A DNA stretch of 64,000 bases, from positions 1,928 to 65,927 of the IMG/VR virus record IMGVR_UViG_2681813455_000010. One strand, given 5' to 3'. Within the stretch, counting starts at the first letter, position 1, and each line of letters begins with the position of its first letter. Positions 6,275 through 7,303 of this stretch are shown piece after piece. This stretch comes from a virus. Lineage: Duplodnaviria; Heunggongvirae; Uroviricota; Caudoviricetes. Both the position numbers and the translations under genes were made by a program. The notes under the pieces are model-generated. The model did not search any database, was not told where the DNA came from, and saw only the letters and a program-made list of their open reading frames with translations.

Positions 6275-7303
6275 TTATTTAACAGTGATTTGAACGGAGA
6301 AGCCTACACCGTGGTTTACAACCATCTGGCTATTCTCTGTAACAACGTTAACAGCATCACCACGAGAAGATTCATAGCTGTAGCTATAGACCTCAGTAGG
6401 GGCGGCATTGATCAGTTCAAAGGTGCTGGAAGCAGCCCCGTAGATGTTCTGATATACGTTAGAGCCTTTAGCGAATTTAGGCACAGCTACAGCGTCTGCG
6501 GTCATATGTGCCAGGTGTAGCGGATCTACCAGTTTAATAACATCAATGTTAGTTCCTGGAATAGTGAACGCTGTCACTCCTGGCAGCAGGTCACGACGCT
6601 GATACACAACGTTCCCTTCTTCCAGTGGGCTTACATACTGGAATGCGTTTGCCATACCAGCAGAGAATCGAATTGCAGAGAAGGCGTCAGGTTTACAGAA
6701 AACAACAATACGCTCTACAGCAGCCGCCTGACTCTGTGCTTTTTCAATAATATCAGTAGCAATCTGATCAAATTCTTTAAAAATCTTCGTGGTGTCAGTG
6801 CTGGAAGCGTTCACAGTGGCTTTCATAGCTGATACGTTAAACAGCTTGCCCCACTCAATTAACACATCATCAGTTTTCGGTGTGTAAGTTTTACCGCTAA
6901 ACAGAGATGCAGCTAGCACGCTCTCTTTTGTACGCTGATACGCTACGTGATGTTTTGCAACATAGTCAGCATAGATATCAGTGAGTGTTTCCTGAAAATC
7001 AGTGCCAGGCTTACGCTTGCCTTGAACATCAGAAGGACGGATCACATCTTCACGAAGAAAATACGGGATTTCAATCAGCCATTCTTTACCTTGTTCTCGC
7101 TTAGTAACATTGTGTTCAGAAGAGAAACGAGAGGTTTCTTTGTTGAACAGAGATTCGTTGCTTTCGACAAGCTGGGAAACAGCTACTTTATGAGATGTAA
7201 CCCCTACAGAATCCGTAAAATCAAGAGTAGAAAGCAGATAGTTTCTAGTGCTATGCGCAGAGAACAGAGGAGCTAAATCAACGTAATCATTACCTAGAAT
7301 CAT
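6275..7303 (-). CDS. Putative major capsid protein, distant lambda gpE-family homolog
   Basis: 342 aa vs lambda E 341 aa in this window; co-linear weak matches at equivalent positions (IVVFCKPDAFSAIRFS vs IIVFDPKGWALFRSF; C-terminal FSVQI vs FVSVQL); followed by hairpin plus T-run. Confidence 0.45.
   Translation of the reverse strand: MILGNDYVDLAPLFSAHSTRNYLLSTLDFTDSVGVTSHKVAVSQLVESNESLFNKETSRFSSEHNVTKREQGKEWLIEIPYFLREDVIRPSDVQGKRKPGTDFQETLTDIYADYVAKHHVAYQRTKESVLAASLFSGKTYTPKTDDVLIEWGKLFNVSAMKATVNASSTDTTKIFKEFDQIATDIIEKAQSQAAAVERIVVFCKPDAFSAIRFSAGMANAFQYVSPLEEGNVVYQRRDLLPGVTAFTIPGTNIDVIKLVDPLHLAHMTADAVAVPKFAKGSNVYQNIYGAASSTFELINAAPTEVYSYSYESSRGDAVNVVTENSQMVVNHGVGFSVQITVK

Follow-up and report, generated by a model that had tools for sequence, protein, structure and literature searches.

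A 12.6-kb island at thrW of Escherichia coli with its own capsid and tape-measure genes is probably a satellite of virulent phi92-like phages

What is a phage capsid gene doing in a bacterial chromosome, next to a prophage that already has one? The question is raised by a 64,000-nucleotide stretch of DNA (IMG/VR record IMGVR_UViG_2681813455_000010, positions 1,928 to 65,927; hereafter the window), which lies in the island region beside the tRNA-Thr gene thrW in the chromosome of Escherichia coli SF-468. On its minus strand at 6275-7303 the window contains a genuine open reading frame (ORF) with an ATG start that encodes 342 amino acids, and a lambda-type prophage at ~21-62 kb has its own capsid gene E, also on the minus strand, at 36986-38011. 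A first-pass annotation, made from the sequence alone, had taken the ORF for a second, highly diverged capsid gene of the lambda E family, in an element that would rely on a helper phage. Our comparisons suggest that it probably encodes the major capsid protein of an integrative satellite at thrW, similar in kind to the PLEs (elements that resemble phage-inducible chromosomal islands) of Vibrio cholerae, and that this satellite parasitizes virulent phi92-like phages of the Stephanstirmvirinae.

The 342-amino-acid (aa) protein matched the Pfam family PF03864 (Phage_cap_E, 'Phage major capsid protein E') with an E value of 8.5e-15 and 55 bits, against a curated cut-off of 22.9 bits, and its residues 18-341 covered positions 13-329 of the 329-position profile, which is full length. 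It also matched phrog_29, 'major head protein', and the earlier reading as a capsid gene, of the Pfam 'E' family, holds. A family profile was built from 20 capsid homologues and searched against all PDB sequences at E<=1; it retrieved five myovirus-type capsid proteins in all, led by phi92 gp124 (E 3.5e-19, full length), and did not retrieve lambda gpE. The capsid protein of the phi92-like phage EmilieFrey (Justusliebigvirus; Bas61) aligned with the ORF from end to end at 22% identity (E 2e-7). In a tblastn search of 50,697 phage records, the sole matches were capsid proteins of myoviruses, from Pseudomonas and in one case Limnohabitans, at 22-26% identity. An AlphaFold model of moderate confidence (predicted local distance difference test, pLDDT, 59; predicted template-modelling score, pTM, 0.63) was compared with the PDB by Foldseek, and the best 50 matches were all phage capsid proteins (top E 7e-12, TM 0.55). 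PhiTE, Bas63, ICP1 and Sf14 came first (E 7e-12 to 1e-8); lambda reached no better than ~1e-5. Similarity to capsid proteins was significant by profile and by structure alike, so the condition under which the first-pass annotation would have been refuted does not apply. Judged from these alignments, the nearest characterized relatives are the capsid proteins of the large lytic myoviruses phi92 (gp124, PDB 21uy), PhiTE, ICP1, Sf14 and Pakpunavirus. They share with the ORF the Pfam family, a length of ~330-345 aa, a colinear full-length alignment and the predicted HK97 fold, whereas identity is just 22-26% and the gene lies in a chromosomal 12.6-kb element and not in a phage genome. We therefore assign the ORF with high confidence to the HK97-fold capsid proteins, in the branch of the large lytic myoviruses and distant from every one of them.

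The resident lambda-type E reached 242 bits against PF03864, has nearly the same length as the 342-aa protein, and is linked to it at the level of the fold. However, BLASTP between the two was not significant (E 0.76) and a global alignment scored only z = 3.4 above shuffled sequences; the likeness is therefore visible only through the shared family profile. The strong divergence from E that had been noted is thus confirmed, and both proteins do end in ..SVQ.. as described. The patchy co-linear similarity survives in part, since the peptides quoted for it stand at residue 199 of the ORF and residue 197 of the resident E, but pairwise it falls short of significance. The label 'lambda-E family' likewise stands at the level of Pfam and fold and not as close kinship, because myovirus capsid proteins are nearer; the gene context is different too. 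On the alignments, the connection to lambda E is one of family and fold only, and nominal.

The capsid gene is part of a compact mobile island of 12.6 kb and not of the lambda-like prophage beside it. Three exact copies of the 19-nt thrW 3' end are present in the window (at 1874, at 14451 and within thrW itself), where 0.01 would be expected by chance; as these repeats flank the capsid gene, the gene lies within a unit of 1874-14469 (Table 1). The same element was found alone at thrW, without the lambdoid prophage, in E. coli PSJ-22 and C6, and PSJ-22 has the same junction. Between the attachment (att) sites are an integrase, a replication-initiator-like (Rep) gene and iterons, comprising a 22-bp repeat that stands five times in tandem at 11766-11874 and once more at 12046-12065, together with three repeats of a second set at 11934-12029. 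Scans with Pfam and PHROG profiles detected no portal, protease, scaffold, terminase, sheath, tube or lysis gene in the element. It therefore has the build of a satellite: it is discrete, att-flanked and equipped with an integrase, it has its own Rep and iterons, and most virion and lysis genes are missing. That portal, protease and terminase are all absent agrees with the earlier view that packaging would call for a helper phage.

Four independent observations, concerning the tail genes, the capsid, a non-coding match and recent exchange of DNA, point to the Stephanstirmvirinae, the ~150-kb lytic myoviruses of the phi92/phAPEC8 type. The structural genes of the element run in the order 70-aa ORF, 120-aa ORF, capsid, 67-aa ORF and tape-measure homologue, followed in some family members by a Dit-like gene. 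The tape-measure homologue is 31-37% identical to the tape-measure proteins of 134 phage records, nearly all of them ~150-kb phages of E. coli or Klebsiella, including named Justusliebigvirus and Phapecoctavirus. The Dit-like protein is 54-61% identical to proteins of Justusliebigvirus and Phapecoctavirus, one of which is annotated 'tail tube initiator'. In phi92-like phages the tape-measure and tube-initiator genes are adjacent and in the same order as here, within a module where cement protein and capsid are followed by connector and tail genes, then by a small ORF, and then by tape measure and tube initiator; by this comparison the element looks like the phage module minus its middle. A terminator hairpin after the capsid gene, which the first-pass annotation had noted, is present with its T-run at 6257-6233, and phage EmilieFrey has one in the corresponding place.

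The non-coding match is a 40-nt identity with phi92. It extends across position 343, the inner boundary of that phage's left direct terminal repeat, which is annotated at 1-343. A repeat of 342 bp was determined by PhageTerm in the related phage BME3, giving independent support for a repeat length of 342-343 bp. Phi92-like phages of E. coli, Klebsiella and Citrobacter share an identical 26-nt core of the motif. In 62 phage records, which belong to Justusliebigvirus or Stephanstirmvirinae by name or class wherever checked, the site is found essentially once in each genome, and it is also present in unannotated DNA of 427 E. coli genomes. A role as the site of the adjacent resolvase is unlikely, since strain C6 has the motif beside an unrelated gene; the serine recombinase is replaceable, with other genes in its stead in C6 and in other genera. 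Several 'Campylobacter phage' records (MG0656xx) of ~146 kb have the phi92-type motif and tail genes like those of Justusliebigvirus, and are probably mislabelled or contaminated.

Recent exchange is seen in the phage inny (Justusliebigvirus, MN850601.1), which has 230 bp that are 98.3% identical to window positions 10110-10339. The next gene in that phage, inny_184 (L018 in our set, 3233-4336), codes for a pair of Rep-like HTH_36 domains and, after them, a MUG113/T5orf172 (GIY-YIG-type) domain; its first ~480 bp match, at 97-99% identity, a rep allele that belongs to the same element family and is found for example in strain C6 at thrW. The MUG113/T5orf172 domain also resembles putative homing endonucleases, and GIY-YIG nucleases of T5-like and other phages. 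By analogy with Odn, described below, this chimeric Rep-nuclease protein would appear to be a counter-attack of the helper phages on the satellite. A 72%-identical copy of inny_184 is present in phage BI-EHEC.

By analogy with the published PLE-ICP1 parallel in Vibrio cholerae, a mechanism can be proposed for the element; its anatomy and homologies are direct sequence data, and from them we infer all of the functional steps. Upon infection by a phi92-like phage, the element would excise and replicate from its iterons. The satellite capsid protein would then build a small shell, fit for ~12.6 kb, on the portal, scaffold and protease of the helper; that the head would be small, with T=3 or T=4, is suggested by P4 and PLE, taken together with the T=13 head of phi92. 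The helper terminase may package satellite DNA through the copy of the terminal-repeat boundary, while the satellite tape measure, with or without the tube initiator, would replace that of the helper in tails that are otherwise helper-built. The satellite would finally exit in particles whose tails hold its own tape measure. On balance, and with less assurance than for the satellite assignment itself, we favour the view that this is an undescribed Enterobacterales satellite family with a hybrid strategy against phi92/phAPEC8-like myoviruses, supplying its own capsid and tape measure and a copied terminal-repeat boundary and taking the rest from the helper, that the helpers answer with an Odn-like, origin-directed chimeric nuclease, and that the two form an independent E. 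coli counterpart of the PLE-ICP1 arms race.

All PLEs encode a tape measure and some also a baseplate hub, which are 19-41% identical to those of ICP1 and have been shown experimentally to replace them, giving chimeric tails (PMC11838301, PMC12987554). In the ICP1 nuclease Odn, a domain copied from the PLE Rep is joined to a T5orf172 nuclease domain, and the protein cuts the PLE origin (PMC8263062). The element is like a PLE in being small and integrated, with a large virulent myovirus as its helper (presumed here, with the T=13 head of phi92), in having its own Rep with an iteron origin, in encoding a tape measure and a variable baseplate component (31-61% identical to the helper's, compared with 19-41% in PLE), and in facing a phage-side chimera of a Rep DNA-binding domain and a T5orf172 nuclease domain (Odn there, inny gp184 here). 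By contrast, PLEs use the ICP1 coat protein with a PLE scaffold, TcaP, whereas the element encodes its own capsid protein; it has a tyrosine integrase at a tRNA gene and hosts among the Enterobacterales, and no detectable sequence relationship to PLE genes.

Phage-inducible chromosomal islands of the capsid-forming kind (cf-PICIs, such as EcCIEDL933) are also satellites of ~12-15 kb with an HK97-fold capsid protein of their own that is only distantly related to any phage. However, they carry protease, portal, connectors, HNH, TerS and TerL where the element has a capsid gene only, they are without tail genes where the element has tape-measure and tube-initiator homologues, and their known helpers are temperate phages whereas the presumed helper here is virulent. 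As for P4-like satellites, neither the primase-helicase alpha nor sid, psu or delta was found among the ORFs of the element with Pfam and PHROGs, a P2-type cos site not having been explicitly searched for. The element is therefore neither a cf-PICI nor a PLE, nor is it P4-like; by analogy, it would be most like PLE in its working, with the addition of the cf-PICI idea of a private capsid protein.

Several findings weigh against the satellite assignment. The capsid protein is only ~22% identical to that of the presumed helper and no scaffold or protease is recognizable, so that its fit with the head-assembly proteins of the helper is assumed. Nothing like the left end of phi92, and hence no second terminal-repeat boundary, was found inside the element. 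Diverged versions of the motif occupy the same position in PSJ-22, in our locus L009 and in other genera, with no phage match in the collections searched. The motif-bearing segment is moreover mosaic between otherwise divergent lineages, and its high identity may in part be due to recent recombination. In inny gp184, the nuclease-like domain lies exactly at the Pfam threshold, with 22.3 bits. The 120-aa ORF was matched by no identified protein, and a model of its structure was too poor to use (pLDDT 41). The promoters look like ordinary sigma-70 promoters, and nothing in the way of a helper-responsive control element was found. Finally, no particle-derived contig of element length was present among the IMG/VR matches and none of them looks packaged; there the capsid gene is found only on contigs of 19.6-76 kb, all much longer than the element.

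The motif variants lacking a phage counterpart may be a pointer to helper lineages that have not been sequenced. For the version in PSJ-22 and L009, the phage collections gave no match and IMG/VR gave only two contigs, both of which also contain the satellite capsid gene. At least two further motif versions were seen, in PSJ-22 (L016, 20440-20530), L009 (3620-3700), L011 (~4436) and L015 (~4893), with the skeleton GATATTT ... GCGCTGA ... CGTTAA.

The want of a packaged copy in IMG/VR would also suit an anti-phage island that is not mobilized, in which the diverged capsid, tape-measure and tube-initiator proteins act without packaging as dominant-negative decoys that join in the assembly of phi92-like heads and tails and poison them. 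Structural genes homologous to, and yet far from, the phage versions would suit interference, tail interference by a satellite is known for Rta of PLE11, and the neighbouring island at the same att site has defence genes. We nevertheless consider this explanation unlikely. The intact att sites, the integrase, the Rep with its iterons and the copy of the terminal-repeat boundary are hard to explain without mobilization, and PADLOC gave no defence-system match to the proteins of the element beyond generic helix-turn-helix matches. The decoy explanation also overlaps largely with that of a satellite, since satellites usually interfere with their helper too.

We give little credence to a third explanation, in which the element is what decay has left of a formerly complete prophage, with the capsid gene as a functionless leftover. 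The thrW region is indeed a mosaic of islands with integrase fragments and insertion sequence elements, and the databases hold many truncated capsid fragments. However, the structural genes are under purifying selection and form a conserved family, not debris. Between two strains, SF-468 and PSJ-22, the ratio of non-synonymous to synonymous substitution rates (dN/dS) was 0.09 for the capsid, 0.10 for the tape measure and 0.04 for each of the Dit-like, 120-aa and 67-aa genes, at a dS of 0.13-0.21. Capsid homologues occur at 37-97% identity in Escherichia, Citrobacter, Klebsiella, Enterobacter, Cronobacter, Dryocola, Serratia, Sodalis, Buttiauxella, Kluyvera and Scandinavium, and all of them, down to the most distant, measure 341-348 aa. 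A compact gene order (~70 aa, ~120 aa, capsid, ~62 aa, tape measure of ~620 aa) is kept in the loci of Klebsiella, Citrobacter, Serratia, Sodalis, Buttiauxella, Kluyvera and Scandinavium, although integrase, insertion site and presence of the Dit-like gene vary from locus to locus; in all, the block is syntenic in nine genera of Enterobacterales. The att sites and the origin are intact, and the 50,697 phage records hold no complete phage with a close relative of the capsid, the best being 26% identical. Among 5426 complete E. coli genomes, 396 (~7%) have the capsid gene, always in the chromosome. An E. coli-type copy of the element is also borne by contig JAEWTL010000083.1, which is labelled 'Bacillota bacterium MAG' and is probably mislabelled or contaminated.

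Less probable still is the explanation implied by the first-pass annotation, a lambda-family satellite or defective element with the resident lambdoid prophage as its helper: although both capsid proteins are of PF03864 and nearly equal in length and both elements sit at thrW, the two proteins have no significant pairwise similarity and gpE is absent from the PDB profile matches, the tail genes are of the phi92 myovirus type and not of the lambda type, and the non-coding half of the element has no match in lambda phages, and the prophage is very unlikely to be the helper because the element occurs alone at thrW elsewhere (PSJ-22, C6) and its phage affinities are all with virulent phi92-like phages.

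Collectively, these findings suggest that the element probably represents a new Enterobacterales family of virulent-phage satellites, which shows signs of an arms race that it and its helpers are still engaged in. To our knowledge, only Vibrio (PLE and PICMI) has yielded virulent-phage satellites that are known in detail. We found no earlier account of satellites that depend on phi92-like phages, or of this set of genes, in a literature search whose coverage excluded most subscription journals. If the satellite assignment is right, the presence of the family in E. coli, Klebsiella, Enterobacter, Citrobacter and Serratia would extend virulent-phage satellites beyond Vibrio. With a capsid and a tape measure only, the element would stand between the remodelling of helper capsids (P4, PICI, PLE) and the building of a whole head (cf-PICI), and it could show how many genes of its own a satellite needs in order to set the size of the capsid. 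That a phage gene appears to join Rep and nuclease domains suggests that counter-defence of the Odn type arose more than once. Phages of the phi92/phAPEC8 group are repeatedly isolated and tested against avian pathogenic E. coli, E. coli producing extended-spectrum beta-lactamase and carbapenem-resistant Klebsiella; if the assignment holds, the element could be an unrecognized cause of resistance to these phages as well as a route of gene transfer.

Table 1. Features of the 12.6-kb element at thrW in E. coli SF-468, in window coordinates
Feature	Position	Strand	Evidence or remark
Left attachment-site copy, direct repeat of thrW 3' end (TGGTGCCGATAATAGGAGT)	1874..1892		Exact repeat; junction in PSJ-22
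Tyrosine integrase, DUF6538 + SAM-like + catalytic domains	1979..3313	+	PF00589 2.9e-17, PF20172 4e-9, phrog_1 integrase
Dit-like baseplate / tail-tube-initiator homologue, counterpart of phi92 gp135	3394..4107	-	PF21821 3.7e-29
Tape-measure homologue, 609 aa, counterpart of phi92 gp134	4141..5970	-	phrog_16051 1.1e-53; dN/dS 0.10
Conserved 67-aa ORF directly upstream of the tape-measure gene, in tail-chaperone position	5985..6188	-	Position kept across genera; dN/dS 0.04
Intrinsic-terminator-like hairpin and T-run directly after the capsid gene	6233..6257	-	Terminator scan
Predicted major capsid protein, HK97 fold, Pfam Phage_cap_E	6275..7303	-	Profiles, alignments, model; dN/dS 0.09
Conserved 120-aa ORF, placed like the cement/decoration gene of the phage	7322..7684	-	Invariably adjoins the capsid gene
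Conserved 70-aa ORF, first gene of the structural block	7681..7893	-	ORF list, synteny; no Pfam/PHROG match
Stable leader hairpin and T-run, upstream of the structural block	7960..7990	-	-19.3 kcal/mol, z = -3.05
Strong sigma-70-like promoter (TTGACA, 17 nt spacer, TAATAT, with TG); starts the leader	8185..8213	-	Promoter scan
Three small conserved ORFs, 122, 136 and 92 aa	8243..9404	-	No family matches
Replication-initiator-like protein, HTH_36 winged-helix DNA-binding domain	9416..10108	-	PHROG replication-initiation families to 1.6e-9; Pfam HTH_36
55-aa ORF and flanks	10110..10339	-	DNA 98.3% identical to lytic phage inny
62-aa ORF, first gene of the early/replication operon	10347..10535	-	Sigma-70-like promoter (11/12) upstream, 10646-10674
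Iteron-type origin, AT-rich flanks	11766..12065		Repeat analysis
Small serine recombinase (resolvase/invertase type)	12718..13257	+	PF00239 6.4e-34
Non-coding motif, proposed packaging-signal mimic	13262..13345	+	40-nt core 13294-13333 identical to phi92 318-357
Conserved 52-aa ORF close to the element's right end	13687..13845	-	RefSeq annotation; kept in PSJ-22 and C6; no family match
Right attachment-site copy, end of the 12.6-kb element	14451..14469		Exact repeat

The small genes of the structural block were examined with the same profile collections. Upstream of the capsid gene, an ORF of the size of lambda D had been described; the 120-aa ORF is indeed there, while its likeness to D is one of size and position. 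Its family is restricted to Enterobacterales chromosomes and unnamed, and the candidate role of a decoration protein was not supported, as neither lambda D nor the cement protein of the phi92 type resembles it by profile. The 67-aa ORF matched no Pfam or PHROG family. A tail chaperone was considered for it and rejected, since it has no similarity to the 75-aa gene that lies upstream of the tape measure in the phage and its alignment is instead like that of a helix-turn-helix protein. Its pattern, ..L..LC.LLDV.Y.GV..R..R.., is closer to small helix-turn-helix proteins of the AlpA/excisionase type than to tail chaperones. The Dit-like gene is accessory, its presence differing between loci and some family members lacking it.

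Terminator-like hairpins are found in other genera at the same position as the leader hairpin despite diverged sequence, and this positional conservation suggests that transcription of the structural block is gated. No late-promoter motif common to the leader of the block and the phage intergenic regions was found, and an Rfam scan of 1-15000 gave nothing near family threshold. The early promoter (10646-10680) and the prohead-protease promoter of EmilieFrey (L007, 4450-4485) have a 13-mer, GGTATTGACAAAT, in common; this could be due to chance, as the 13-mer covers the -35 consensus in an AT-rich context.

Including the element, at least three elements stand in tandem at one att site. A second island occupies window positions 14470-21000, between att copies. 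It encodes a defence protein of the dCTP-deaminase type (18516-20294; PADLOC dCTPase, 5e-127) and a DUF4365 protein like Argonaute-associated restriction endonucleases (14835-15875), and has a C-terminal integrase fragment near 16125-16418. The lambda-type prophage at 21000-62556 lies directly at thrW, with gpJ, a lambda-type tape measure, E, D, an S49 protease, a portal and the gpA terminase. Its integrase (61379-62542) has the same layout of DUF6538 and catalytic domains as that of the satellite, with sequences that are barely related (BLASTP E 0.003). On the other side, between the vat/MarR region and the satellite, an N-terminal fragment of a P4-type integrase with its Arm DNA-binding domain (1381-1719) is a remnant of another thrW island.

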